Shown here: piece after piece, positions 3,552 to 56,699 of the stretch
Position numbering within the stretch: the stretch's first letter is position 1
Layout of the letters: the number at the start of each line of letters is the position of its first letter
Assembly (NCBI GenBank): GCA_965242925.1
Contig: CBDEUM010000013.1
Span: 96,001-160,000, forward strand
DNA from: Roseibacillus sp.
GTDB lineage: Bacteria; Verrucomicrobiota; Verrucomicrobiia; Verrucomicrobiales; Akkermansiaceae
Length of the DNA: 64,000 bases
Reading direction: 5' to 3'
Translations under genes and position numbers: made by a program
Notes under the pieces: generated by a model
Told to the model about the DNA's origin: nothing
Databases searched by the model: none
What the model saw: the letters and a program-made list of their open reading frames with translations, nothing else

Positions 3552-5084
3552 ATGGCACATCCCCAGATCATCCAAGGCGGCATGGGCATTGCCGTCTCCG
3601 ACTGGCGCCTGGCACATGCGGTGGCAAGAGAGGGAGCGATGGGCGTCGTGTCCGGCACTGCGATCAGCTCTGTGCTGGCGCGCCGGCTTCAGTTGGGGGA
3701 CATCGGTGGACACATGCGCCGCGCTCTTGAGCATTTTCCCGTACCCGAGATCGCTGAGGAAGTGCTCAACACGTATTACCGTGCCGGTGGCAAGGGGGCG
3801 GACGAGCCCTACAAACTGACACCGATGTACAAGATCAAGACCAGTCTTGCCGGACTCCGTCTGACGGTAGTGGCCAACTTCGCCGAAGTCTTCCTCGCCA
3901 GGGAAGGTCACGACGGCCAGGTGGGAATCAATTTCCTCGAGAAGATACAGTTGCCGCATCTAGCCTCCATCTACGGGGCGATGCTCGCGGGCGTCAACTA
4001 TGTGTTGATGGGAGCAGGAATTCCCCGTCAAATCCCCGGGGTTCTCGACAGTTTGAGCCAGCATCTGAAGTCGCGTTACAGGCTGGCCGTCGAGAATGAG
4101 CCGAGCGGCGAAGAGACCTACACGGAATTCGATCCGGCGGAAGTCATCGGGTTGCCTTCTGCCTTCCCGCTCTCGAGACCTTGTTTCATCGCCATCATCG
4201 CGTCGACGACGCTGGCGCTGTCCCTGTCTAAGAAAGCTTCAGGCTACGTGGACGGCTTCGTCATCGAGTACCCTGTCGCCGGTGGACATAATGCGCCGCC
4301 CCGAGGAAAGTTGCAGCTGAGCGAGCGGGGAGAGCCGATTTATGGACCGAAGGACGATGTGGACCTGGAGAAGATCGCCGCCATCGGGCGTCCCTTCTGG
4401 CTCGCCGGGGGATATGCTGACCCCGATCGCCTCGTTCGCGCAATGGAACTTGGGGCCACGGGGATCCAGGTCGGATCCGCCTTTAGCCTCTGCGAGGAAT
4501 CCGGCGTCGACCCTGCATTAAAACAGAGAGCCCTCGACAGCGTGAAGCAGAACGGCATCCGAGTCTCCACTGACGCCATCGCATCTCCGACCGGTTTTCC
4601 TTTCAAGGTCCTCCCCCTTGAAGACACCGCATCCGAGTTGGCCGTCTACGAGAAGCGTCCCCGAATCTGCGATCTCGGCTACCTGCGGGTGCTGGCCAAG
4701 TCCGGCGACGACAAGATCGTCTACCGTTGCGCAAGCGAACCGGTTGCCGCCTACGTGAAAAAGGGCGGTGATGAGGCTGCCTCAACGGGACGCAAGTGCC
4801 TGTGTAACGCGCTGCTGGCGAATGTCGGTCAGGCACAATTGCAGAAGTCAGGTTTCACCGAAACGCCACTGTTGACGTCGGGAGATGACGTCAACATGGT
4901 AACCCGTTTCCTCAGCGAGGGACGCACCTCCTACAAGGCCAAGCAGGTTCTCGATTTTTTACGTGCTCCAACCAAATCCAACGAAGCGGCGGCGGGAGAC
5001 GGGGACGTCCGACCCTTCGGCAGCCCGACTCGTAAATCCTTTGAAGTTGGGAGTTCCAATGGTCCATCAAATAACGCGTGCTGA
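3552..5084 (+). CDS. nitronate monooxygenase / 2-nitropropane dioxygenase-like FMN enzyme
   Basis: IIQGGMG start, AGGHNAPPRG, FWLAGG, GIQVGSAF, SPTGFPFKV, CDLGYLR and CLCNALLA motifs. Confidence 0.9.
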   Translation: MAHPQIIQGGMGIAVSDWRLAHAVAREGAMGVVSGTAISSVLARRLQLGDIGGHMRRALEHFPVPEIAEEVLNTYYRAGGKGADEPYKLTPMYKIKTSLAGLRLTVVANFAEVFLAREGHDGQVGINFLEKIQLPHLASIYGAMLAGVNYVLMGAGIPRQIPGVLDSLSQHLKSRYRLAVENEPSGEETYTEFDPAEVIGLPSAFPLSRPCFIAIIASTTLALSLSKKASGYVDGFVIEYPVAGGHNAPPRGKLQLSERGEPIYGPKDDVDLEKIAAIGRPFWLAGGYADPDRLVRAMELGATGIQVGSAFSLCEESGVDPALKQRALDSVKQNGIRVSTDAIASPTGFPFKVLPLEDTASELAVYEKRPRICDLGYLRVLAKSGDDKIVYRCASEPVAAYVKKGGDEAASTGRKCLCNALLANVGQAQLQKSGFTETPLLTSGDDVNMVTRFLSEGRTSYKAKQVLDFLRAPTKSNEAAAGDGDVRPFGSPTRKSFEVGSSNGPSNNAC

Positions 5085-34508: not shown

Positions 34509-37500
34509 ATGGCGCAAGCAAGACGAAAGGGCATTCGGAACGAGTTATTCCGGCGTGCCATCCGAACCGCAGGTTCTGCCTTCCTCCTTACCATGATGGG
34601 CTGTTCGGACGATTCTGCTGAAAAACACCCACCAGACGAGGCGGATTCACCTGCCGCGGCAGAAAATACGCCCTTTACCTTCAAGGTCCAGAGCGACCGG
34701 GAGCGAGAGGAGCTCGCCCAGCGCGAAAAAGAGTTCGATCCCAGCAACGATGGCTGGGAGAGCGAGGCCTTCCATGGGGAGATCACCTCCCAGCTCAAGT
34801 TGCTGGCAGAATCCCTGTCGTTGGACGAGCCCCCCGGGATTCTCAGCCCGGATGCGGCCTCCTCGATCCTGCGACCCGCCAATCTGGTGCCTGTATTCCA
34901 GCGCCACGGCATGAATATCCTGCGTGCCCCCTCCCCGGCCGACTCTCCTGCCGGCCCCCTCGCGGATCAGCTGAAGGCCCTCGCTGCCTCTCTCCACCGC
35001 GAGGGAGCCGATGTCTCGGTCCGGTTCAAGCAATTCCGCGTCCGTCCCCCGGCAGAGGGTGGAGAGAGTCCCTCAAGCACCGTGCTCTACAAGGCCAGGG
35101 CCTCCAGCCCGTCCGGGGAACGCGTCCAGAACGCCACCTGGGGCATCGAGTGGGTCTACTCCCCTGCCACCTCCACCTACTTGATCAAGACCGTCCGCCC
35201 GAGCGACTTCGAGGAGATCGAGCTGCCGGCTTCTCCGGAGATCGCCACCACCGAGGACACCCATGCGCTCTTCCGGGACCGCACCGGTGATCTCATCGAT
35301 CGCCTCCCGCGGGGCGACTTCATTCACTGGGGTGCCAACGAACTCTCCGTCCGCGGCCTCTACCAGAATGGACGCGCCCTCATTGGACTCGCGGTAGCCG
35401 ACGCCAACGGGGACGGAATCGACGACGTCTTCGCTCCGCAATCCCGAGATCTTCCCAACCTGTTCTTCCTCTCCCAGCCCGATGGAAGTCTCCGGGAAGT
35501 GGCGGCCCGGTCAGGGCTCGACTGGCTGGACGAGACCACTGTCTCGCTCTTCGCCGACTTCGACAACGACGGCGACCAGGACCTCGTCGCGGCAACCCGC
35601 CAGCGTCTTGCCTTTCACGAGAATACCGATGGATCCGGCCTGAATTTCAAGCGGATCCTGGAGCTGCCCCAGAGCGACACCTCCTCCCTCGCAGCTGCCG
35701 ACTATGATGGCGACGGGCTCCTCGATCTTTTCGTGTGCAATTACCTGAGCAGCGTGGGGAATGAGGCGGTCACTCTCTCCGATGCGATCTACAACGCCCT
35801 CGATGGTGGTTCGAACCTGCTCTACCGCAATGAAGGTTCGCTGAAGTTTACCGACGTTACGGAAGCAGTGGGTATGCACGTGGATGCAACCCGGTTGAGC
35901 CTGGCGGCCTCCTGGGAAGATTTCGACAACGACGGGGATGTCGACCTCTACGTGGCCAACGACTTTGGACCGAACTGTCTCTACCGCAACGACAAGGGCA
36001 AGTTCACCCAGATCGCCAAGGAGGTGGGGGCGGACGATCCTTCCTTCGGAATGTCGATCACCTGGGGTGATATCAACCGTGACGGACTGATGGACGCCTG
36101 CATCTCCAACATGTTCTCCGCAGCCGGGAACCGCGTGACCGCCCAGCCCAAGTTCGAACAGGATCTCACCGAGGGACTGGATGCCAAGCGCATCGCCTAC
36201 CTCGCACGTGGCAACACCCTCCTCGTCAACCAGGGTGGAAAACTCTTCCAGGAACGCAGTGCCCAGGCCGGTGTGGTCAACACCCAGTGGACCTGGGGAA
36301 CGCTTTTCGGCGACTTCGACAACAGTGGCGATCTCGACATGATGGCCATGAACGGCTACATCACCGGACCGGTGGTCGATGACTTGTGAAGTTTTTACTG
36401 GCGGCAGGTCCTGCCGGAATCAGGAACAAAGAGTCCCTCGCGCGATCAACTTGAAATCTACCTGCGGGAGGGGCGTTCCCTCAGCGGCCGGGAGCGCAAC
36501 GCCCTCTTCTTCAATACCGGCACCGGAAACAGACGCTTTGCGGACGTGTCATCGATCTCCGGGATCGACCAGGACGGCGATGGGCGCGGCCTCTGCCTCA
36601 CGGACTGGGATGCCGACGGCGACCTCGACGCCTGGGTAAGCAACCGGACGGCCCCCACCATACAGGTCTTCGAAAACCGCTGGGGTTCCCAGGCGGGAGA
36701 TTTCATCGCCCTCAACCTGCAGGGCACCAAGGCTAACCGCGATGCCGCCGGGGCACGCGTGACACTGCTGCTCAAGGGACAGGAACAGGCCCCTCTCACC
36801 CGCACCGTGCATCTCGGGGAAGGGTTCCAGAGCCAGTCCTCCAAGCGCCTGCACTTCGGCCTTGGAAAGAACGCCACGATTTCCTCCGTGACCGTGCGCT
36901 GGCCGGGACCGTCCCATGCCACCGAGACGTTCTCAGGCGTGGAGATCAACAAATTCCACCTCCTGGTGGAGGGCTCCGGCCAGGCCAGGGTCCTGCAACC
37001 CCGGGGAGCCAAGTTCGTGACTCCCGAGAATGCGGTTGTGAAGCCGGAGGAACGGATCAAAAGGCCGGAGAGCAGCAACAGCATCCTGCTCCCCACCCGT
37101 CAGCTCTTCCCCAAACTCCACTATCGTGATCTTGCCACCGGCAAGACCATGATCGGAGCCACTTCCGGCAAACCCACCCTCCTTCTTCTCTGGCACCCGT
37201 CCTGCGCCATGTGTTTCGAGGAACTGTCCATGTTCACCGGGGAAGCCGACAAGATTCGCCGCCTCGGCATTGAGATCCTGGCCACCACGGCCGAACCGGC
37301 GGAGGATGAGGATCCCGATGATGCCGCCAGCATCATCTCCAAGACCGGCTTCCCCTTCACCGTCGGCTTCACCGCCGGGGAAGTGGTCGAACGCATGCTG
37401 GTACTTCACCGTCACCTCTTCTACAGTCCCTACCATCTGAGTGTCCCCACCTCCTTTCTCCTCGACAAGGATGGGCGCATGGCTGCGATCTACCGGGGTG

Positions 37501-38276
37501 CAATCGATCTCAAAGAGTTAGAGGAGCACCTCAAGGCTCTCGCCATCCCCGACAAAGAACTCCTCTCCCGGATCCGCCCCTTCGAGGGTAGCCGGTTCGA
37601 ACCAGCCATGGGGCCGCGGCCCTCGGTCCTCATTAAGACTTACGTCGAAAACCAGATGCCCGACGAAGCCGAGCGCGTCTTCATCGCAAGCATCGAGAAC
37701 GAGTCGATCAGGGACCAGAGCAATGAGATCATGGCCACCCTGGGGCAGAGTTACTTCCTGCAGAAAAAGTTTGCCGAGGCCAAGCCGCTCTTCGAGCAGG
37801 TGGTGAAGCGTGATCCCAGGGACGCCAAGTCCCGTAACACCCTCGCCGCCATCTGCCTGAAGGACGGAAACATGGTCGAGGCCAAGCGTCTGTGGCGGGA
37901 GGCCTCTGACCTCGAGGAGGATTTCTCAGCTCCCCGTTTCAATCTCGGCAAGCAACTCATGAAGGAGCAGCGGACTGCGGAGGCCATGATCCTCTTCCTC
38001 GAATACTGGGTCCTCGAGCCCGATTCCCCGGACGCCCACAATTACCTCTCCATGGGCTACCTCCGTGGTCGTGAGTTCGCCAAGGCCGAGATGCACCTCA
38101 AGCGCCTCATCGAACTGCGCCCCGACGATGGCATCGCCTACACCAACCTGGCCAAGGTCTACCTCGCCCTCCGCAATGTCGCCGCCGCCCGGGACATCAT
38201 CACCCGCGGGCTCCAGATCGAGGGGATCGACCCGCGCAGTCGGCAGGCCCTCCAGCAGTTGAGCGAACGTCTGTGA
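34509..38276 (+). CDS. FG-GAP + ASPIC/UnbV + thioredoxin-like (CxxC) + TPR protein; in-frame TGA at 36387 (candidate Sec627), 1255 aa if read through
   Basis: ORFs 34509-36389 and 36546-38276 share a frame with no other stop between them: DDL*SFYWRQV...GRSLSGRERNALFFN. Also DxDxDGDxD repeats, GEGFQSQS, WHPSCAMC and TPRs. Confidence 0.8.
36390..36426 (+). promoter_or_regulatory. putative SECIS element
   Basis: CGGCAG-GTC-CTGCCG stem-loop (36402-36416) on a CTGG/TCAG lower stem; GGT apex 17 nt after the TGA. Confidence 0.7.
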
Positions 38277-45212: not shown

Positions 45213-48200
45213 TCACCGTGATTGGGCTATCGTCACAATGTTGTCCGTATCTGCCCTGACTTGGTGAGTCGACTCGCTCCCGTCCGGCCAGCGGACCGAA
45301 AGCTCCATATCCCTTCCGGGCCGTGCGAAGCACAGGAGGCCTCCCGAGCGGGTGGAATATCCCCCCCCAACCTGTTGCTCCCGCAATTGATGGCCCAGCC
45401 GGACCCTTGCACCAACCGCTTGCGGGTTGCCCTTGGTTCCCACCAGGCGCACCCTCAGCGGCAGCTTGCCGCCACGACGGAGGAAGGTCATCACGGGCTC
45501 CTCATTGATTCCGAAGACCAGATCCAAACGCCCGTCCGTATTGAGATCCACCACCGAAAGGCTCTTCCCGGCCCCGGGAACCTCGACTCCACTGGCAACA
45601 GGTGCAACAGGAGTAAACTGCCCCCCTCCGTCATTGAGCAGGACCTGGCCCAGGCCGCCGTCCATCCGCCCGGTCTCACGTTGGGGGCTGAAGGAATTCT
45701 GTGCCAGGACGGCGTCAAGGTCTCCGTCTCCATCGAGGTCCTCCAGCACCACACCGTAGGACGGTGCAATCTGTGCGATACGTGGCAGGGAACGCCACGT
45801 GAAGACGGCACTGCCGTCGTTGACCAGGATTCCACTCTCAAGGACATTTGCCTCCCGTCGCAGGGACTTTGACAGCCGGAGATCACTATAGATGTCATCC
45901 AGAACCGCACTGGCAAAGTTGTGGAAGGTCTCTAGTTTCACATCAAGAAAGGGCATCGCGTCGCGCGAACAACTGAAACCCCGCCGGGGAAGAAGGCGGC
46001 CTTCCGTATCATACTTGGCCTCCACGAGGTGGGACTTCCCACTTCCGTCGAGATCGCCGTAGTAGATCAACTCAGGGGATTCCGGGCTCGCCTTGTATTT
46101 TGAGTTCAGGCCGTTGTTGGTCACAAGGTAGTCGAGGTCGCCATCACCATCGATGTCTCCGCCTGCAATCCCGTTCCACCAACCCAGCCGGTCAGCGAGC
46201 TGGGACTCCGCGGTTCGATCGACGAGGACTCCCTCTTCGTTCCGAAAATAGCGCACCGGTCCCCACTCAACAGTAAGCAGAAGGTCACTCCAGCCATCAT
46301 CGTCAACATCCGACCAGAGGGCCCCGGTCACCATCCCGACCTCGTCCGCCCCGGGGAACTGCTCCGGGCCGGCCGGCACGAATGTTCCGTCCGTGTTGAT
46401 GAGCAGGTGACTCGGTGGAGCGAGGGGAAAGCTCCCCGGCACCACCCGCCCTCCAACGAAGAGATCAAGGTCACCGTCCCGGTCAAAGTCTCCCGCCGCC
46501 ACCGGCCCGGAACTGGTGCGAAAATCGGGAAGCGCTCCCTTCCCCGCGGGAGAAAGACCTCCCCGACCGTCGTTAAGATAGAGACGGTCACGATAGCTGA
46601 CGTGACCCTCCGCCTCTTCCACTCCACCACTCGCCACGAAAAGGTCCCGATCGCCGTCGCTGTCCGCGTCAAAGAACAGAGCTCCCAGGTCCTCCGCCCC
46701 GGCATCAGCAGCAAGCGCCTCCACTTCACCGACAGAGAACCGGCCATCACCCCCGTTGAAGTGAATCTGCCCTGGATATCCCCGGGATCCTCCGAGAAAG
46801 AAATCCTCATCCCCATCACCATCGAGATCGCCCCAGGCCACACAGGGACCCTGCTGTGAGAGTTTGTTGGGCAAGAGCGGCTGCCGGGAAAAATCGTCAA
46901 AAGGCTGCTCCCGGTGGATCGCGGTGGAAAGATGATCCGACCGCTCAAACAGGACCGGAAGAGCCGAATCAGCCGGGGGATCCGGCTGCCCGACCGGCTC
47001 GGTAATCAAGTGGTAATGATCAGCCTCGAGATCCGTGAGAAGCTGACGCGTCCCTCCGGGCCAGAGAATCTCGATCCTGTCAATGGTCCTCGCCGATCCC
47101 AACCCGAAGCAGGCGGCGGTATCACTGGCGGAGAGCCAGCCCCGCGCGGCGGTTACGAAGCGGGTCTGCTTACCCATCGCGGTTGTCACCGTAATAGTGG
47201 CTCCCAACCCGTCCCGGTTGCTTGCCCGGCCCATCAATTTGATCACCACACGATGAGTGTCGGCAACCCGGTTGCGATAGAGCGTGACCGGTTCCCCCGC
47301 ATTGCTGACGGCCAGATCCGGATCTCCATCACCATCAAAATCGGCACTGGCAGCACCGAAACTCACGCCAAGATGTTCCAGCCCCCACTCCGCACCGGCT
47401 GATTTGAACTTGAGATCTCCCAGGTTCCGGAAGGCCATGTTCTTTTCCTTCCGCAACGGTTTCTCAAGCCAGAACCTGGCATACTCGGGGGTCCCCGGCT
47501 GCAGGTTCTTCCTGGAATAATCGGAGAGGTCGCTGTTCATGTTGTCGCGCATTACCCCGTTGGTCACGTAGATATCAGCGCGCCCATCCTGGTCGTAGTC
47601 CTCAATACGCGGCGTCCACGTCCAGTCCGTGCTCGCCAGCCCGGCAAGGAAGGCGGCCTCCCGAAACCGTCCTGTGCCTGAGTTGAGGAGCAGCGCATTG
47701 CGCATGTACTGCCGTGGCTCGGGCCACTCAAGGAACCAACCCATGTCGTCCATGTTCCCCATCATCACCTTCTCCCGGTAATGCGAGCTCGCCGACATGT
47801 CGGAAGCGAAGAGATCAAGCAACCCGTCATTGTCGAGATCACCGACATCGCTTCCCATTGAGAACCAGGGCGTATGGGGCACTGCTTCCCTCGCGACATC
47901 CTCAAATGTGCCATCTCCACGGTTACGGTAGAGCATGTCAGGCCCCGTGAAATCGTTGGACACATAGAGGTCCGCGTCTCCATCGGCATCATAGTCAATC
48001 CAGGTAGAGGACAGCGTGAAGTAAGCACCCTTGATCCCCGCCACCCTGGAGACATCAACGAACTGCCCGCCGTCATTACGGAAGAGCCGATCACGCTGCC
48101 CCGCCTCCACACGCTGCGCCTTGTCCCCGGGCTTTATCAGGATTTCCCAGTACTCGCTCAGCTCGGGAATTACCACCGGGATTTCCTTTCCGTCACTCTC

Positions 48201-48911
48201 CCGGGGGACGAACTTCACCCTGAAGTCCGTTCCCGGTGGAGGTGCCACCGCAGTGGTCGCAAGGTAGCCGTCAAGATCGCCGTCATTATCAATATCCGTG
48301 AAGCTCATCATCATGCTCCCGCCATTGAAGTCGAGGCCCACCTCCGCGGCCCGGTCGACAAACCTTCCCGTGCCGTCATTTATGTAGAGCTTGTTGGGCC
48401 GGGTATAGCCACAGGCGTAGAGATCGAGATCTCCGTCATCGTCAATATCGACGAAACTCGCACCGGTTCCCCAGAAGCCCGGATCGGAGACCCCGGACGC
48501 CTTGGTCACATCTTCAAACTTAAATCCTCCCGTGTTTCGGTAGAGCCGGTTGCCCCCCGAGGGACTGGTAATGTAGAGATCCGGCAACCCGTCGCCATCA
48601 TAGTCACCCGCGCAGATCCCCCCGGAGGGATTGAGGAAGATGAACTCCTTGAGGACGCTGGCCGGGTCATCCCAATGCATGCCGTAGTCAATTCCCGTCC
48701 GCCCGGCCGGGAGCGCCTCAAAGAGGGCCTCCCCCTCGGCCCGGACCGCACGGACCGGGAGAGGTCGGGATTCGACGGTCCCTGGTGCCGGGGCCACCCC
48801 ACCGCGATCAGGATCCGGGCCGGCAGATGTTCCTGCCGGTTTGTCGCAACCCGCCACCACGAGCACCAGGGGTATCGCTGCACCAGCAAGCAGGTGGGAA
48901 ATCGGATTCAT
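45213..48911 (-). CDS. CRTAC1-like FG-GAP/ASPIC-UnbV lipoprotein with two beta-propeller sets
   Basis: Lipobox VVAGC, many DxDxDGDxD repeats, SMGSDVGD, STDWTW, NRDGLGA...RGWLSAS. Confidence 0.88.
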   Translation of the reverse strand: MNPISHLLAGAAIPLVLVVAGCDKPAGTSAGPDPDRGGVAPAPGTVESRPLPVRAVRAEGEALFEALPAGRTGIDYGMHWDDPASVLKEFIFLNPSGGICAGDYDGDGLPDLYITSPSGGNRLYRNTGGFKFEDVTKASGVSDPGFWGTGASFVDIDDDGDLDLYACGYTRPNKLYINDGTGRFVDRAAEVGLDFNGGSMMMSFTDIDNDGDLDGYLATTAVAPPPGTDFRVKFVPRESDGKEIPVVIPELSEYWEILIKPGDKAQRVEAGQRDRLFRNDGGQFVDVSRVAGIKGAYFTLSSTWIDYDADGDADLYVSNDFTGPDMLYRNRGDGTFEDVAREAVPHTPWFSMGSDVGDLDNDGLLDLFASDMSASSHYREKVMMGNMDDMGWFLEWPEPRQYMRNALLLNSGTGRFREAAFLAGLASTDWTWTPRIEDYDQDGRADIYVTNGVMRDNMNSDLSDYSRKNLQPGTPEYARFWLEKPLRKEKNMAFRNLGDLKFKSAGAEWGLEHLGVSFGAASADFDGDGDPDLAVSNAGEPVTLYRNRVADTHRVVIKLMGRASNRDGLGATITVTTAMGKQTRFVTAARGWLSASDTAACFGLGSARTIDRIEILWPGGTRQLLTDLEADHYHLITEPVGQPDPPADSALPVLFERSDHLSTAIHREQPFDDFSRQPLLPNKLSQQGPCVAWGDLDGDGDEDFFLGGSRGYPGQIHFNGGDGRFSVGEVEALAADAGAEDLGALFFDADSDGDRDLFVASGGVEEAEGHVSYRDRLYLNDGRGGLSPAGKGALPDFRTSSGPVAAGDFDRDGDLDLFVGGRVVPGSFPLAPPSHLLINTDGTFVPAGPEQFPGADEVGMVTGALWSDVDDDGWSDLLLTVEWGPVRYFRNEEGVLVDRTAESQLADRLGWWNGIAGGDIDGDGDLDYLVTNNGLNSKYKASPESPELIYYGDLDGSGKSHLVEAKYDTEGRLLPRRGFSCSRDAMPFLDVKLETFHNFASAVLDDIYSDLRLSKSLRREANVLESGILVNDGSAVFTWRSLPRIAQIAPSYGVVLEDLDGDGDLDAVLAQNSFSPQRETGRMDGGLGQVLLNDGGGQFTPVAPVASGVEVPGAGKSLSVVDLNTDGRLDLVFGINEEPVMTFLRRGGKLPLRVRLVGTKGNPQAVGARVRLGHQLREQQVGGGYSTRSGGLLCFARPGRDMELSVRWPDGSESTHQVRADTDNIVTIAQSR

Positions 48912-49031: not shown

Positions 49032-49925
49032 CTACTGAGAGCGGCGCCTCCGGAGGAGAAATGCGAAACCGGTAAGACCCAGCAGACTGAAAACGGCTGG
49101 CTCCGGGATCACACTATCCGCTCCCAGTGCGATACTCGCATCGACAAAGGACTGATCCGCCGCGTTATCCCAGATGCGGAACTCCTCGAAGGTCCCGTCG
49201 AGGGTGCCATCATTGATCCAGGTCGAGCGACCGAGCCAGGTGTTGACATCATTGATGTCCCCCAGAGTCCGAGGGGCAACTCCGTCAACAGTCACGTGCT
49301 CACCATTGCGCCAGTAATTGATGACGCTCTGGGTTCCGTCACCTTCTACCGAAACGGCAAAGTGAAAGATCTCACCAAAGGTGGTATTCAAATTCGAGTC
49401 CAGGGTCGTGACCCCACCGCCGCCCGGATCCTCATTACGCCATTCAATCCGTTGCTGGTTGTAGTTCCCTCCACGGGAAGCCGACAGCATGAGGTAATCG
49501 CGTCCGTCCGTACCGCCGCCGTTGGTATTGCCGGGACCTGTGATCTCACCAGCCGCCGGGTCTCCCTGAGTGCTGCCAATATCGAAAATCCGCGTCCAGC
49601 CTCCACCACCACTTGAGTCAACCGAGACCCAACCTTCAAGAGTCACGGTGGAATGGACCGAGAGCAGGTTATTGGGGAGGTCGCCGTAGGCTGCCCGCCC
49701 GTTCATTGAGTCCCCCCCGGGAAGATCAAGTCCCGTCCCGGTGAAGTTGGCGCCGTCACCCCGGACGAATCCAGTTGCTCCTCCGACAGAATCCACAAAG
49801 GCGGACCCATCGGCAGCTGAGCCCGCAGCTTCGTTGAAGCTCCAGCGATGGATGAGCGCCGAGGATCCCGGAAGGACCGTGCTGGCAAGAAGTGCCAGGG
49901 GAAGGAAATGTCTGTGCGTTTTCAT
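49032..49925 (-). CDS. PEP-CTERM protein with a LamG-like domain
   Basis: Signal peptide, LIHRWSFNE, TLEGWV, WLGRSTW, EEFRIWD; C-terminus IPEPAVFSLLGLTGFAFLLRRRRSQ. Confidence 0.9.
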   Translation of the reverse strand: MKTHRHFLPLALLASTVLPGSSALIHRWSFNEAAGSAADGSAFVDSVGGATGFVRGDGANFTGTGLDLPGGDSMNGRAAYGDLPNNLLSVHSTVTLEGWVSVDSSGGGGWTRIFDIGSTQGDPAAGEITGPGNTNGGGTDGRDYLMLSASRGGNYNQQRIEWRNEDPGGGGVTTLDSNLNTTFGEIFHFAVSVEGDGTQSVINYWRNGEHVTVDGVAPRTLGDINDVNTWLGRSTWINDGTLDGTFEEFRIWDNAADQSFVDASIALGADSVIPEPAVFSLLGLTGFAFLLRRRRSQ

Positions 49926-50028
49926 GATGTATCCTCTGGGCTTATTGCCCAGATGGGACGAATAGCTCATTCCACCAATTTCTCGGACCCAGTCAACAGA
50001 AAATGTAACTCATGCAGTTCTCAGCAAT

Positions 50029-52479
50029 TCATGAACTTTCACTAATGTAATGTAGTTTTTGGGTCTCGAGATTCTCGAGCACCTGGATTTTCCCTGAAGG
50101 CCAGCGGATCGTGAGCCGATCCACTTGCTTGGCCGAACCCAGGCCAAAGTGAATGGAGTTACTGGCCTGGGAGCGGTAGGAATTCACCGGGAATTGATGT
50201 CGCACGATCAGGCGGCCCCCTGCCTCCGCCACCAGGCGGGCGCCGATCCCATGCCGGTTGCTGGTCGTCCCGCGCAAACGAACTGCAACCCAGTTTCCTG
50301 CTGGAAAACGGTTCTCGAATATAAGGACCGCACCTCCTCCCGTCTGGCGCACAATCAGTTCCTGCCGCCCATCTCCCTCAAGATCAGCGGCGACACAGGC
50401 CCGGGCATCTCCATCGCTGTCTGCGCCGGTCAGGTGACTGATCTCAAGGAAGCTCTCTCCTTCCATACTGAGAAAAGCCCGGTTCCTCTCATAGCTGCTC
50501 AGATTATTCTCCCAGTTGATCCTGAAGGGATCCTCCACCCAGAATTCTCCCAATGAAGGATCGGGAGCGCCAGGACAACTGGCAGTAGCTGAGCGGTTAA
50601 ATGGTTGTGACACGACAACCTGCCAGAGACAACTTCAGCCATCGGGCTTGCCCCGTTCCTGGCTGATGAATCCTGCGGTCGCGTAGAGGTCGAGCCAACC
50701 GTCATTGTTGAAGTCCGCCAGGCACGGTCCCCACGCCCATCCAACCGCGTTTACTCCCATCACGGTTCCAACCGGGGAGAATCGTTCTCCTTCCTGCCCG
50801 AGGTAGAGCTGGCTCCCATCAACCAGTCGTTCGAGTTTCCGGACCACCTGCCTGTCATATTCTCCCGGGGGAATATTGCCCATGACCCGCTGCCCGGCCT
50901 TGGAATACATTTCCCCGATATAAAGATCGGAGTAGCCATCGTTGTTGATGTCTCCCGCTGTCATTCCCATTGAACCAAAATCGGTTGGCGCCTCGTTCAG
51001 TTCCTTCCCCTGGAATTGTCCATTCGGACCATTGAGCAGCAGGATTCCATCTCCAAACTCGTCGATTACATAAAGGTCCGGCCTCAGGTCATCGTTTGCA
51101 TGGAACCAAACTGCGTTGCTGGTCGAACGCTGACCGCCATCGAGAGGCGCCCCATTGGTCGCATCCTCAAATTGCCAGCCCCCGACATTCCGCAGCAACT
51201 GGTTGTTGGCCAGCTTGCCTGCCTTGCCGTCAATCCAGGATCCCGATTTGAACCCGCCTCCTGCTCCCCGGGTGACATAGAGGTCGACCTTTCCATCGAG
51301 GTCGTAATCTGCCAGCGAAATCCCGGTGGGTTTCACCTGAGTTTTTTCCAGAACCTGCTCCCGGGTGCTGGTCTTGAATTCTTCCCGCGACATCCCGATC
51401 AGAAAGGAGGTCAGGTTGCTGCGCTCCGTGATGTCCTGAAAAAAACGACCGTTCAGATTACGGTAGAGGCGGTAGCCATCCGGATGGTGGGCAATGCCGT
51501 GGATGAGATCCTCCCAGCCGTCGCCATCCAGATCGACAAAAGCCGCAAAGCCCCCTCCCAGGTGACCACGTATGCCCAGGGCCTGCGTCCCTTCCCGAAA
51601 CAATCCCCGCGGCTGGCCGACGAAAAAGCGTGAACCCCGCATGTCGGTCACGAAGAGGTCATGGCGCCCATCGTTGTTGAAATCACAAAGGTAAACTCCG
51701 CCCGTGTTCATCACCCTCCGGTTACGGGGCTCCTTCCAGTTATCCCAGAAGAGAGCATTGTTGATTCCGCGCCCGGCAGCTACTTCGGTCATGAGAGGCT
51801 CCCTGGCATGCCCAAGCACCGCACGTGTCACATGCATGGAGACAAGCCACCCCGGGGTCGCCAGCCGCTCCTCGTTCAAGGCCGAGACTCCGAACTGAAA
51901 AAAGAGGGTGAGCTCTCCCCGTGATCCTGCCGGACCCTCCGCGAACACCTCGATCTTTCCAGTCCCGGACCAGGGTCCCCCGGGGTTGTCCCGCTCCTCC
52001 GGAGAGAGCGTGATGACATGAGTCCGCAACGTGAGATCGGCGCGCCCGCTCTGATCGAGTTCAGCCAATCTTCCCAGGATCCAGTCGGTAATCCCCTCCC
52101 GCTCGACACGCCGCGATTGACTGCTGCCAACCTCTTCGCGCACCGCAAGGATACCAGCTTGGAAGGATTGGCCTTTTCCGGCAGCTGGATGCAGTCCCTT
52201 GAACCCGGGAGCAAGGATATCAACCAACTTCTGGCGGTTCCGTGACTGCAAGGCTTCTGCAATCTGGGAAAACCCAATCTCCTTCAGGAGATTGGCACGA
52301 TGCTCGGCATCCCATATGTAACTCCGTCCCTCCTCACTGATGAGCCTGGGCGGATCGTCCGGCTCCCGGGCCACGCGATCGCTCTCATCCTTCTCGGAAC
52401 AGGAGCAAAGGAGCAGGGCCACCACCCAGCAGGGTGCTGCCCTTGCCGCGGGGAACTCCGTCATCGGTCCGGGCATCAC
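50029..52479 (-). CDS. FG-GAP + ASPIC/UnbV lipoprotein; in-frame TGA at 50637-50635 (candidate Sec615, U-x-C), 816 aa if read through
   Basis: ORFs 50635-52479 and 50029-50613 share a frame, joined by KPDG*SCLWQVV. Lipobox-like LLLCSC; NLSSYERNRAFL; NRHGIGARL...NSYRSQ...HFGLG. Confidence 0.78.
50603..50634 (-). promoter_or_regulatory. putative SECIS element
   Basis: After the TGA: AGTTGT-CTCT-GGCA-GGT-TGTC-GTGTC-ACAACC. Folds either with a GCAGGT apex or as GGTTGT-CGTGTC-ACAACC. Confidence 0.55.
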
Positions 52480-53269: not shown

Positions 53270-53393
53270 GACCCGCGCGGCCGACAGCGCTGCTGTCGTG
53301 ACCCCGATGTGCTGCTGCTCCCGGCAGCACTGCGCCCGCGCATTGACCGATAGAACCCCGGTCTCCCCCAGTCTCCAACCGCAGGACCATTCC

Positions 53394-54821
53394 ATGACTC
53401 TCGAGAAACTCACCTCCCTTCAGGATCCCAATCCGAAATCGCCTCCTTCCGGCGGGAGACGGCTGCCCGCCGCTCTCCTTCCCATCGGCCTGCTCCTCGC
53501 CTTCATGGCGATCTTCGGGCTGATGTTCGGTTCACGGCTCCTTCCCGTCACCGAAGTGCGCACCGCCCCCGTCATTGCGCTCCGCATCGCTGCCGGAAAG
53601 AACGAGGTGCCGGGTTCCGATTCCTCCCTTCCGGCTCCATCCGGCCAGGGCAAACTCCTCTTCCAATCCTCCGGATGGGTCGAACCGGACCCCTACATCA
53701 TCAATGTCCCCACCCTCGTCAGCGGAGTGATCAGGGAGGTGCTGGTCCTGGAGGGCCAAAGCGTCAAGAAGAACGACGTTCTTGCCACCCTGATCGATGA
53801 TGACGCCAAACTAGACGTTCAGGAAGCCACCCACGCCATTGCCACTCTCGACGCCACCCAGGTCGCCCACTGCGCCCAGCTCCCGGTTCTCAATGCCGAG
53901 ATGCACGCCGTGCAGCAACGGATCAAATCCGAAAAGGCCCTGCACGCCGAACTGCTCGACACAGCCACCCGCCTGGCCTCGATCCCGCCGGGATCCGTAT
54001 CCGCCCAGGAGGTCCGTCAGGCACAGCTCAAGGTTGACGCCCAGAAGGCGGTCATCGACGAAACTACCGCAAACCTTGCCGGTGCGCTCGCCAAGATCAA
54101 CAAGGTGGATCTCGAACGGATCACGGTGAATGCAAGAATCAGGGCCGCTCAGACCGAACTCGCCCGCAGACAACTCGCCCTTGAGCGGACCGTGATCAAG
54201 GCTCCCATCGATGGCATTGTTCTCCATCTCCACGCCGCACCGGGAAAAAAACGAATGCTGGAGAGCGACGATCCCTCCAGCGCCCTCATCGTTGAGCTCT
54301 ACGAACCCGGGAAGTTGCAGGCCCGTATCGATGTCCCCCTCACGGAAGCCGCCTCTCTGCAGATCGGGCAGCCGGTCATTCTCACCACCGACCTCCTCCC
54401 CGACGTCAGGTTCAAGGGAGAAGTAACCCGCATCGTGGGCGAGGCCGACCTGCAGCGCAACACTCTCCAGACCAAGGTCCGCCTTCACGAGCCCGACGTC
54501 CGCCTGCGTCCTCAGATGCTGGTACGCGCCGAGTTCTACCCGGGTGGAAATGCCGATTCTGAAACCAGCCCCTCCAGTGACGGACCGCGCCTCGCCATCT
54601 TCGCGCCGGAGGAAGCCCTCTTCGATCGTTCGCAGAGCTCGGCCCGGGGCTGGATCGTCGAGGACGGCCGCGCGCGGCTTCGGACTCTCAAGGTGGGTTC
54701 CGAAAAGCGCGAGCAACACCTCCGGATCATCGACGGCCTTCGCCCCGGCGATCAGGTTATCCTGCCGCCCTTCGGGGACCTGGAGGAAAACCAGCGTGTC
54801 AGAATCACCAATCCCTCCTGA
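53394..54821 (+). CDS. efflux periplasmic adaptor (membrane fusion protein)
   Basis: TM anchor, SGWVEPDP, VLVLEGQSVKK lipoyl halves, coiled coil, IKAPIDG, LRPQML. Confidence 0.9.
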   Translation: MTLEKLTSLQDPNPKSPPSGGRRLPAALLPIGLLLAFMAIFGLMFGSRLLPVTEVRTAPVIALRIAAGKNEVPGSDSSLPAPSGQGKLLFQSSGWVEPDPYIINVPTLVSGVIREVLVLEGQSVKKNDVLATLIDDDAKLDVQEATHAIATLDATQVAHCAQLPVLNAEMHAVQQRIKSEKALHAELLDTATRLASIPPGSVSAQEVRQAQLKVDAQKAVIDETTANLAGALAKINKVDLERITVNARIRAAQTELARRQLALERTVIKAPIDGIVLHLHAAPGKKRMLESDDPSSALIVELYEPGKLQARIDVPLTEAASLQIGQPVILTTDLLPDVRFKGEVTRIVGEADLQRNTLQTKVRLHEPDVRLRPQMLVRAEFYPGGNADSETSPSSDGPRLAIFAPEEALFDRSQSSARGWIVEDGRARLRTLKVGSEKREQHLRIIDGLRPGDQVILPPFGDLEENQRVRITNPS

Positions 54822-54853
54822 GGGCCAAGCTCGATCAACACCCCCGTTTTCAC

Positions 54854-55549
54854 GTGTCCACCTCCCTCATCCAGATCCGCAATCTGACCAAGTCCTTCCG
54901 CAAGGGCTCCAACCTCATCACGCCCCTGGAGAACCTGAGCCTCGACGTTTCCCGGGGCGAGTTTCTCGCCCTCATGGGACCATCCGGTTCCGGGAAGACC
55001 ACCCTGCTCAATCTCATCGCCGGCATTGACACTCCCAGCAGCGGGGAACTCATCATCGACGCACAGGACCTGGGGGCCCTTTCCCGTGCCGAACTCACGA
55101 GGTGGCGTTCCCTGCAGGTGGGCTATATTTTCCAGCTCTACCACCTCGTCCCGATCCTCTCCGCTTACGAGAACGTCGAACTTCCCCTGCTTCTGCAATC
55201 CCTCAGCCGCATCCAGCGCCGGACCCGGGTGGAAACCGCCCTTGAACTCGTGGGCCTCTCCGACCGGTCCCACCACCGGCCGGCCGAACTCTCCGGTGGC
55301 CAGGAACAACGTGTCGCCATCGCCCGGGCCATCGTGCACGATCCCGGACTCCTCGTGGCCGATGAACCCACGGGAGATCTGGACGGAGAATCCGCGGGCT
55401 CCGTACTCGACCTCCTCCGTTCCCTTTCCCGTGATCACGGCAAGACCATCGTGATGGTCACTCACGATCCCAGGGCCGCCGCGGTGGCGGACCGCACCCT
55501 CCACCTTGACAAGGGTCAACTCGTCACTCCCGAACCGGCACACAGATAA
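54854..55549 (+). CDS. MacB/LolD-type ABC ATPase
   Basis: [37 protein letters not shown]. Confidence 0.95.
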
Positions 55550-55565
55550 ACAGAATCCCGGTCCC

Positions 55566-56699
55566 ATGCTTTCCCTCGCTCTCAAGAACATCTTCCGCCA
55601 CCGCCTGCGTTCCTTCCTCACCATGGCAGGGGTGGCAGCCGGCATGTTTCTGTTCACCGCGGTGGAAACCATGCAGTATTCCCTGGCCCGGGTCACCAGG
55701 GCCGGGGCCGACGACACCACGCTGGTCGTCTACCGGGAAAACCGCTTCTGTCCCGCAACCTCCCGCCTCCCGGAACACTACCTCCCCACCATCGAAAAGA
55801 TCGAGGGCGTGCGCGAAGTCATTCCCATCCAGATCGCAGTCAACAACTGCGGGGCCAGCCTCGATGTCATCACCTTCCGCGGAGTCCCCGTCGAAACCCT
55901 GCGCAGGTACAACCCCGATCTGAGCATGGTCGCTGGTTCCTTCGAGAACTGGGCCAGACGCTCGGACGCCGCACTCGTGGGACAGACCTTCGCCCAACGC
56001 CGCGGACTCAGGACCGGCGACAGTTTTGAGGCGGTTGGCATCAACGTCCACGTCGCCGGCATCATCCAGTCGGAAGAGAGTCAGGACAACAACGTCGCCT
56101 ATGTCCACCTGCCCTTCCTTCAGCAGGCCTCCAACGTGGGACTGGGAACCGTCACCCAATTCAACGTCAAGGTCGATTCCGCCGATCTTCTCGACCCGGT
56201 GGCCCGGAAAATTGATGCCACCTTCCAGGCCGACTCACAGCCCACGGCCACCCGTCCGGAGAAGGCCTTCTTTGCCGAGACCGCCAAGCAGATGATCGAA
56301 CTCATCGGCTTCACCCACTGGCTCGGACTGGGAGCGGTGGCCGCCGTCCTGGGACTGGTTGCCAATGCCGTCCTGCTCATCGTGCGCGGCCGCGTCAGGG
56401 AAACCGCCGTCCTGCAGGCCCTCGGGTTTTCCCGGTTCCGCATCGCCAGCCTTGTCGCCACCGAGGGTCTGCTCCTCGGACTCATGGGTGGCGCCCTGGG
56501 AGTAGTCTCCGCCTTCCTCTTCCTGCATTGGCAATCCTACACCCTGGGCAATGAGGGTCTCACCCTCGCCATCACTCCGAGCCCGGCTGTCCTCCTCAAG
56601 GGTCTCCTGGTCGCATTTGTCCTCGGCCTGGGCGCCTCTCTCTACCCCGCCTGGCGCGCCTCCCGCCAACCCCTCGTCGAATCCCTCAACACTGCCTGA
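55566..56699 (+). CDS. FtsX/MacB-type ABC permease
   Basis: KNIFRHRLRSFLT, periplasmic domain, RVRETAVLQALGF, YPAWRASR. Confidence 0.9.
   Translation: MLSLALKNIFRHRLRSFLTMAGVAAGMFLFTAVETMQYSLARVTRAGADDTTLVVYRENRFCPATSRLPEHYLPTIEKIEGVREVIPIQIAVNNCGASLDVITFRGVPVETLRRYNPDLSMVAGSFENWARRSDAALVGQTFAQRRGLRTGDSFEAVGINVHVAGIIQSEESQDNNVAYVHLPFLQQASNVGLGTVTQFNVKVDSADLLDPVARKIDATFQADSQPTATRPEKAFFAETAKQMIELIGFTHWLGLGAVAAVLGLVANAVLLIVRGRVRETAVLQALGFSRFRIASLVATEGLLLGLMGGALGVVSAFLFLHWQSYTLGNEGLTLAITPSPAVLLKGLLVAFVLGLGASLYPAWRASRQPLVESLNTA

Follow-up and report, generated by a model that had tools for sequence, protein, structure and literature searches.

A UGA codon probably read as selenocysteine in a CRTAC1-like FG-GAP/UnbV_ASPIC protein of Roseibacillus sp.

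The DNA analysed here is a stretch of 64,000 nucleotides (nt) from Roseibacillus sp. (GCA_965242925.1, contig CBDEUM010000013.1, positions 96,001 to 160,000 of the forward strand), called the window below, and positions are counted from its first letter. On the reverse strand at 50029-52479, one frame of 816 codons extends from a GTG start at 52479 to a terminal TGA at 50029-50031, and its sole in-frame TGA is at 50635-50637, codon 615. With translation table 11, the gene appears as two open reading frames (ORFs) in the same frame: the first (50635-52479, 614 amino acids) ends in ...GKPDG (...ATAGFISQERGKPDG), and the second (50029-50613, 194 amino acids) begins at a GTG. Reading through the TGA gives WGPCLADFNNDGWLDLYATAGFISQERGKPDG-U-SCLWQVVVSQ, which can also be written ...KPDG-U-SCLWQVVVSQPF. 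The TGT codon of Cys617 lies at 50629-50631, two residues after the proposed selenocysteine (Sec), and makes this residue (the +2 Cys) the candidate resolving cysteine of a U-S-C pair. Slightly further on, at 50603-50620, there is a hairpin resembling a selenocysteine insertion sequence (SECIS), GGUUGU-CGUGUC-ACAACC, with its 5' arm at 50615-50620, its loop at 50609-50614, and its 3' arm at 50603-50608. A model reading the sequence alone (the original prediction) had seen here a divergent FG-GAP/ASPIC lipoprotein in which UGA is recoded. The analysis strongly supports the gene being the short form of a presumably exported, CRTAC1-like FG-GAP/UnbV_ASPIC selenoprotein, and we put the probability that UGA615 is recoded as Sec, as judged from sequence comparison, at about 0.9.

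The same interruption is present in another gene of the window. This long paralog (34509-38276, forward strand, 1255 codons) carries FG-GAP, UnbV_ASPIC, AhpC/TSA-like thioredoxin-fold and TPR domains, and its only internal TGA is at 36387-36389 (codon 627), within ...VVDDL-U-SFYWRQV. BLASTP aligns it with the 816-residue protein over 581 columns at 30% identity (E 5e-54), with both TGAs in one column, after which NLSSYERN pairs with SLSGRERN. The FG-GAP_3, FG-GAP and UnbV_ASPIC families are above their Pfam cut-offs in both proteins, and both genes terminate in TGA. Frame and alignment thus bear out what the original prediction had claimed, namely a divergent paralog with UGA at the equivalent position, a PDG-U-S-C sequence on readthrough, and an LS(S/G)xERN motif shared by the two. 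When the C-terminal 290 residues are used as a tblastn query against the window's genome, 13 paralogs have a stop at the Sec column, that of the window gene and 12 others; it is a TGA in all of them, and each time the sole internal stop of a long frame. Two pairs of these paralogs have identical sequences around the TGA, one on C12 (TGA at 51078) and C17 (49804), the other on C28 (TGA at 4492) and C37 (strand-specific position 128251), the C37 copy stopping after 685 codons versus 1283 for C28. These pairs may be recent duplicates, a broken copy, or redundancy of the assembly, whose contamination estimate is 3.18%.

The codon is also conserved in relatives. Orthologs at 97, 96, 80, 70 and 51% identity retain the TGA. 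Matches to the query were found in 27 of 41 related genomes, and 18 of the 19 genomes from the same genus have 8 to 39 each. A hand count of the matches listed in these 41 genomes gives exactly one TGA in about 137 of about 150 and no stop in the rest, and none of these roughly 150 has another stop codon. Pooling this genome with its relatives, 41 of 41 distinct family sites are TGA; the script had listed 42, and one unrelated chance regex match (C4:31746 of the window's genome) was removed. The result is the same for this genome taken with loci L019-L048 (34/34 unique sites) and for the named loci with a hit spanning the Sec column (n = 70), where all 8 stops are TGA; this alignment-based search mostly collects the broad FG-GAP/ASPIC family, and only those 8 of the 70 spanning loci have a stop at the column. 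Two further loci with the PDG-U-x-C motif and the hairpin, L135 and L144, carry the titles of Alcaligenaceae and Candidatus Paceibacterota metagenome-assembled genomes; since their sequences look planctomycete-type, they are suspected to be mis-binned contigs. A single in-frame stop can resemble a fresh nonsense mutation, and the gene might be read as a recent pseudogene or a sequencing error, or the TGA might be read through by an ordinary tRNA or reassigned throughout the genome. This group of explanations is extremely improbable: the TGA is found in orthologs down to 51% identity and in at least 113 distinct genes, and such conservation of the codon excludes a recent lesion, and the downstream hairpin shows a constraint at the RNA level.

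Protein databases contain the family mostly in pieces. A search of 1.84 billion cluster representatives yields 29,992 hits at E <= 1e-3, and in the best 150 of these, 90 end at query residue 613 or 614 (...PDG). So do 50 of 65 further hits from a second, region-restricted search, which for the most part returned truncated N-terminal halves and contributed a single informative homolog across the column, P0172. The entries ending at ...PDG include NCBI "VCBS repeat-containing" and "FG-GAP repeat domain-containing" proteins, one of them from the cultured Fuerstiella marisgermanici (P0179, 589 amino acids, ending in ...ERGKPDG), and they are proteins cut by gene callers at the TGA codon. In alignments with the paralog and with non-Sec homologs, the coding sequence runs on across the TGA. 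It could be argued that the TGA is a true stop and that the gene is a conserved split pair, made of a 614-residue propeller protein and a 194-residue piece starting at GTG 50613: there are indeed two ORFs under table 11, the GTG is only 7 codons past the TGA, and both halves occur in databases as separate proteins. We consider this very unlikely. The stop found here is always TGA and never TAA or TAG, and S-C-L-W-Q-V, the segment encoded from the TGA up to the GTG, is conserved and continuous with the uninterrupted non-Sec homologs. The original prediction had named independent translation from 50613 and varied stop codons as the opposing pattern; the conserved S-C-L-W-Q-V segment and the lack of any homolog with another stop are what was found instead.

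Much of the machinery for decoding UGA as Sec is present in the genome, which further argues against a split gene. In this assembly (4.58 Mb, 42 contigs, 89.87% complete), a tRNA-Sec is detected at 59 bits and called SeC by ARAGORN, with anticodon tca. selB is present above its cut-off (287.5 bits), and selD is found at 366.6 bits (C14:573853-574776, forward strand, L017). Because there is one in-frame TGA within the selD match, SelD is here probably a selenoprotein itself. Conserved recoding, as the original prediction proposed, agrees with the 13 TGA paralogs of the genome, the 41 TGA sites of the family, and this machinery. Elsewhere in the genome, TGA is an ordinary stop without any general use as a sense codon. 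Among stop-to-stop frames with 300 codons or more, 1846 end in TGA, 978 in TAG, and 608 in TAA, and the in-frame extensions behind the three stops are alike (medians of 38, 35 and 34 codons for TGA, TAG and TAA, respectively). Stop usage and post-stop extensions are thus the same for TGA as for TAA and TAG, against what reassignment would give. The genome-wide list of stops followed by long extensions was too noisy to enumerate the selenoproteome, and it served this stop-codon comparison only.

Two hairpins had been proposed downstream of the TGA, and both are present. The first is a 4-bp GGCA/UGUC stem beginning about 11 nt after the UGA; it is invariant in 6 close orthologs and thus uninformative, and it was set aside. 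The second, GGUUGU-CGUGUC-ACAACC, has a stem that begins 14 nt after the UGA and a loop that begins at 20 nt and contains GU. This 6-bp stem is preferred because it covaries, so that the alternative fold of the original prediction, with its CGUGUC loop, turns out to be the conserved one. Folded alone, it has an energy of -5.4 kcal/mol (z = -1.98). To survey it, a 35-nt pattern was run against 185,579 species genomes, fixing D-G-TGA-x-Cys-x-Trp and the loop GTCGTGTC and leaving the 3' arm and half of the 5' arm unconstrained. It recovers at least 119 stretches (113 unique sequences), mostly from Planctomycetota and Verrucomicrobiota by record title, with one from Dehalococcoidia. The counts that follow refer to the matches listed. 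The stem is fully paired in 104 of the 113 sequences and has 5 of its 6 pairs in the other 9; 98.7% of the stem cells are paired, and shifting the partner by 1 to 3 columns lowers this to 17-63%. At pair 20-33, 109 sequences have C-G and 3 have U-A; at pair 21-32, U-A occurs 108 times and C-G 5 times; and pair 23-30 varies between U-A (105) and U-G (8). There are thus compensatory changes in two of the six pairs, 20-33 and 21-32, and in 500 shuffles neither the observed number of double changes nor the covariation score is ever reached. The stem of the window gene, GGUUGU/ACAACC, belongs to the U-A variants: on one arm there is an Ala-to-Val change, and the opposite arm matches it with a change from CAG to CAA that is synonymous. 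Within the stem, free third positions of codons are 93-96% conserved, versus 36-57% for flanking third positions that are four-fold free and 79% for the two-fold Cys codon. These patterns indicate that the downstream hairpin is under constraint at the RNA level. They also count against the split-gene explanation, since GTG 50613 sits within the conserved loop.

Hairpins are also found at the equivalent place in the long family. In the long paralog of the window, CGGCAG-GUC-CUGCCG occupies 36402-36416. Elsewhere CGGCA-GGUCG-UGUCG is the commonest form, next to variants such as CGCCA...UGGCG, GCGCAC...GUGCGC, GAGCAC...GUGCUC and CAGUGUG...CACACUG, all of them read directly from the sequences without a formal count.

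The readthrough product is modelled as a single fold. On the 816-residue protein, Pfam finds FG-GAP_3 (1.6e-32, 112.4 bits), FG-GAP (5.4e-19, 68.1 bits) and UnbV_ASPIC (PF07593, 64.4 bits versus a cut-off of 23.4), all above cut-offs. An AlphaFold2 model built on a 56-sequence alignment has a mean predicted local distance difference test (pLDDT) score of 90.1 and a predicted template modelling score of 0.90. It places a disordered segment at residues 1-40 (pLDDT below 50 for 1-17 and 22-40), followed by an alpha/beta domain, a beta-propeller, and a C-terminal beta-sandwich. The alpha/beta domain (residues 49-232, 51784-52335, reverse strand) has confidently modelled helices and strands and no Pfam match; a long helix precedes its multi-stranded sheet, and it is conserved in the subfamily alignment. 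From the Pfam matches and the pattern of modelled strands, the FG-GAP propeller with its Dx[DN]xDG loops covers about residues 255-720 (50320-51717, reverse strand), and the UnbV_ASPIC domain covers residues 744-808 (50056-50250, reverse strand). The Sec-bearing helix comes after the last Dx[DN]xDG loop of the propeller. According to DSSP, residue 615 is the first of helix 615-624, which it forms with codons 616-624 (50608-50634, reverse strand), and the 10-residue pLDDT blocks over 611-630 are 90 and 92. One confident helix continuing across the TGA within a single fold is a further point against two separate proteins.

The closest known structure is that of a vertebrate protein. The top Foldseek match in the PDB is mouse CRTAC1 (9etn_A, E 5.9e-23, template modelling score of 0.71 on the target, 16% identity over 632 alignment columns), with lectins, PL11 lyases and integrin propellers far behind. 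The family profile also matches 9etn_A (E 2.2e-25), with no matched stretch over the region of the Sec-bearing helix. A phmmer search of the protein against PDB sequences gives no hit, and CRTAC1 is reached only by the family profile and the fold search. As for localization, the N-terminus of the product (residues 1-27, 52399-52479, reverse strand) reads by eye as an export signal, ...VVALLLCSCSEKD, with a possible lipobox in ...VVALLLCSC. The N-termini of paralogs and relatives, also read by eye, have clearer lipoboxes (LLLAGC, AICGC) or hydrophobic anchors. These features suggest that the product is exported and lipid-anchored.

The residues around the Sec differ between two forms of the family. 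Long paralogs lack U-x-C and read DL-U-S-F/V-[FY]-W-R-Q-V-V. Among the 41 distinct Sec sites, the 8 with a +2 Cys are all short forms that end 200-223 codons after the U and have no CxxC, and these span two sequence types, PDG-U-x-C and VDL-U-S-C. The sites without a +2 Cys are mostly the reverse: 27 of 33 are long and have a CxxC 200-360 residues downstream, and the other 6 comprise 3 long forms without CxxC, 2 cut by the end of the locus, and 1 short form. In the long paralog of the window, for instance, a CAMC motif occupies codons 899-902 (37203-37214). The pattern-selected survey points the same way, as all 74 of the listed U-x-C genes whose flank reached a stop end 194-237 codons after the U. 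The U-x-C pair of the original prediction is thus conserved in the short, tail-less subfamily (8/8 sites) and is not a feature of the long paralogs, where U-S-F/V stands in its place. The tail has generally been lost when a long homolog carries E, S or A at the column (5 of 6 are without CxxC and without a thioredoxin-like Pfam match above cut-off), and the long Cys homolog P0172 keeps CAPC together with strong Redoxin and AhpC-TSA matches. A further Cys is found in a coil past the Sec helix, about 17-24 residues after the U and at slightly varying positions, in all 8 of the full or partial Sec short forms aligned (the window gene, L020-L024, L049 and L050) and also in fragments P0075 and P0118; it is absent from the 11 non-Sec, non-Cys homologs, from the Cys form P0071, and from fragments P0111 and P0140.

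The alternation of +2 Cys and CxxC tail suggests two ways of recycling selenium, and it leads us to propose that Sec615 is a redox-active selenolate at the start of its helix. The following scheme can be drawn. When the ribosome reaches UGA615, a SelB/Sec-tRNA(Sec) complex would bind the GGUUGU-CGUGUC-ACAACC hairpin 14 nt downstream, and UGA615 would be decoded as Sec. The ribosome would then make one 816-residue protein, rather than halting after ...KPDG. The product would be exported and probably lipid-anchored, with its N-terminal alpha/beta domain, Ca-loop FG-GAP propeller and UnbV_ASPIC domain outside the cytoplasm, where the selenolate of Sec615 would act on an extracytoplasmic substrate. 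In the short form, Sec615 would be recycled through a selenenylsulfide with Cys617 (U-S-C), and the long paralogs would rely for this on their fused thioredoxin-like CxxC domain. Redox recycling of this kind, including the role given to U-x-C, is plausible, and we hold the odds for and against it to be about even. The tail and +2 Cys results are associations and not tests, since the samples are small and related by descent.

Several observations weigh against the selenocysteine reading or its redox interpretation. With TIGR00474 or PF03841, selA was not found in the 89.87%-complete assembly; since searches of 12 other genomes from the genus detect it in 11, the absence is probably an assembly gap. 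Beyond the hairpin itself, stretches of 63 and 40 nt have z scores of -0.29 and -0.62, and stretches of 63, 64, 40 and 38 nt fold no better than their shuffles, so that folding energy alone cannot carry the claim. No Rfam SECIS family reaches its gathering threshold anywhere in the window, where tRNA-Pro is the sole match. Because the 35-nt pattern demanded the TGA, the +2 Cys and the loop, the conservation of these three cannot be counted from its matches, and it is the independent sets of sites (34/34, 8/8 and 41/41 TGA) that carry the conservation of the TGA. Paralogs and relatives are, moreover, non-independent samples. As for the chemistry, Cys homologs are usual for redox selenoproteins and rare here: Cys was found at the column only in P0071 (PDG-C-N-C-V-W) and P0172 (DT-C-SHFWRQVV). 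Of the best 150 of the 29,992 hits, 25 cover the column and retain the motif, and their residues there are E (6), D (6), A (5), S (4), and one each of C, V, L and G. Given this predominance of E, D, A and S, Sec is here either irreplaceable by Cys or used for something other than redox. Finally, of 11 short homologs lacking both Sec and Cys at that position, 5 keep the +2 Cys, which may then have a role independent of Sec.

These last points are the basis for another explanation, in which Sec is inserted without being a Cys-like redox catalyst and acts instead as a metal or substrate ligand or as a structural helix cap, or in which the UGA serves mainly as a selenium-dependent switch between the 614-residue and full-length products. 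Besides the scarcity of Cys (1 of the 25, plus one more) and the persistence of the +2 Cys, the position of residue 615 at the start of a helix fits a cap, since S, D and E are common helix N-cap residues. We find this explanation rather unlikely, as the CxxC tail accompanies Sec or Cys and has disappeared from 5 of 6 long homologs whose residue is E, A or S, the +2 Cys is present exactly where the tail is missing (8/8), and the upkeep of about 13 Sec codons in each genome, costly as they are, speaks for a chemical need. A redox-active selenolate remains the preferred role for Sec615.

A wider proposal can be made tentatively, and we rate it as somewhat doubtful: CRTAC1-like propellers may form a new class of extracytoplasmic selenoenzymes, whose Sec cannot be replaced by Cys and is either kept or lost to E, D, A or S, and in which either U-x-C or a fused CxxC domain serves as the recycling module. 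The family could then account for a large part of the selenoproteins of marine Verrucomicrobiota and Planctomycetota, tying cell-surface chemistry to the selenium supply. If UGA is recoded as proposed, gene callers routinely split a large and widespread family, as the 90 of 150 best and 50 of 65 further representatives stopping at the UGA would indicate. Inventories of bacterial selenoproteins would be missing this family, and counting it would sharply raise the number of selenoproteins in Verrucomicrobiota and Planctomycetota. An exported beta-propeller would join the structural classes that use Sec, and the choice between a vicinal Cys and a fused thioredoxin domain would be a natural experiment on how selenolates are recycled outside the cytoplasm. 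The CRTAC1 fold, which is poorly understood, would also become open to study in bacteria.

Other genes surround the Sec gene in the window. About 1.1 kb downstream on the same strand is another FG-GAP/UnbV_ASPIC paralog (45213-48911, reverse strand, 1232 amino acids), which has no internal TGA. In tblastn alignments, the segment carrying Sec in other paralogs is gapped out in this one, as in non-Sec paralogs generally. Sec and non-Sec members of the family are therefore found side by side. Directly downstream of the Sec gene lies a 312-residue ORF (49032-49970, reverse strand) with no Pfam match at E <= 1e-4; its C-terminus, ...PEPAVFSLLGLTGFAFLLRRRRSQ, resembles a PEP-CTERM sorting tail. In the divergent direction (53298-56699, forward strand), genes for an HlyD-type membrane-fusion protein, an ABC ATPase and a MacB/FtsX-type permease follow one another, an arrangement that resembles a MacAB-like efflux operon.

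Members of this domain family have been flagged before. The S9 Table of Kim et al. (2016, PLoS One; PMC4807772) has four rows from it, each entered as a pair of genes that an in-frame UGA separates. For three of the four, bSECISearch reported a SECIS, and the residue in the closest non-Sec homolog is G, which is non-Cys (PMC4807772). These rows come with no alignment, structure, distribution or function, and ASPIC and FG-GAP are absent from the main text. The present gene is from another lineage (its nearest named relatives are Akkermansiaceae/Verrucomicrobiales) and belongs to the short U-x-C subfamily; the paralog expansion, the covariation of the hairpin, the position at the start of a helix, and the alternation of tail and +2 Cys are shown only here. 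The family belongs to a known kind of system and had been flagged earlier without being catalogued. The terms FG-GAP, ASPIC, CRTAC and UnbV are absent from the main texts of a 2022 review (PMC9312934), a 2026 review (PMC13188914), BSepDB (PMC13326102), deep-Sep (PMC12013277) and the GOS study (PMC2398784). They are also absent from the supplements of deep-Sep and BSepDB, and the unsearched supplements of the other papers could bear on this. Text searches joining selenoprotein or selenocysteine with FG-GAP, ASPIC or UnbV retrieved no relevant paper.

The proposed decoding follows the bacterial SelB/SECIS scheme, which as outlined in the 2022 review comprises an in-frame UGA, an immediate stem-loop inside the coding region, tRNA-Sec, SelB, SelD and SelA (PMC9312934). 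Like the archetype of this scheme, E. coli fdhF, the present gene has an in-frame UGA and an immediate stem-loop within its coding region. Set beside the spacing and loop rules of fdhF and other bacterial SECIS elements, it has a GU-containing loop that begins 20 nt past the UGA, and its 6-bp hairpin is shorter than that of fdhF. The host proteins differ, since fdhF encodes a cytoplasmic molybdoenzyme and the present product would be an exported beta-propeller, and binding by SelB is here only proposed. In its architecture, the protein shares with mouse CRTAC1 (9etn) the FG-GAP propeller and the ASPIC domain. Its identity to CRTAC1 is 16%, and an additional domain at the N-terminus sets it apart; the long paralogs are extended further, by thioredoxin-like and TPR domains. 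No evidence of CRTAC1 being a selenoprotein was seen, and a paper describing the 9etn structure was not found among titles and the openings of abstracts.

The last comparison is with extracytoplasmic thiol-disulfide oxidoreductases that have a thioredoxin fold (AhpC/TSA, Redoxin and TlpA types) and with thioredoxin-fold selenoproteins. As in these proteins, the Sec proposed here would be a redox chalcogen at the start of a helix with a resolving Cys nearby, and the long paralogs themselves carry an AhpC/TSA-like CxxC domain. In contrast to them, the spacing is U-x-C rather than CxxC or CxxU, and the Sec is carried by a propeller protein; the Pfam search found no thioredoxin-like domain in the 816-residue protein. 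The latter is not a member of the thioredoxin-fold CxxU/UxxC selenoproteins, but it may work in a similar way.

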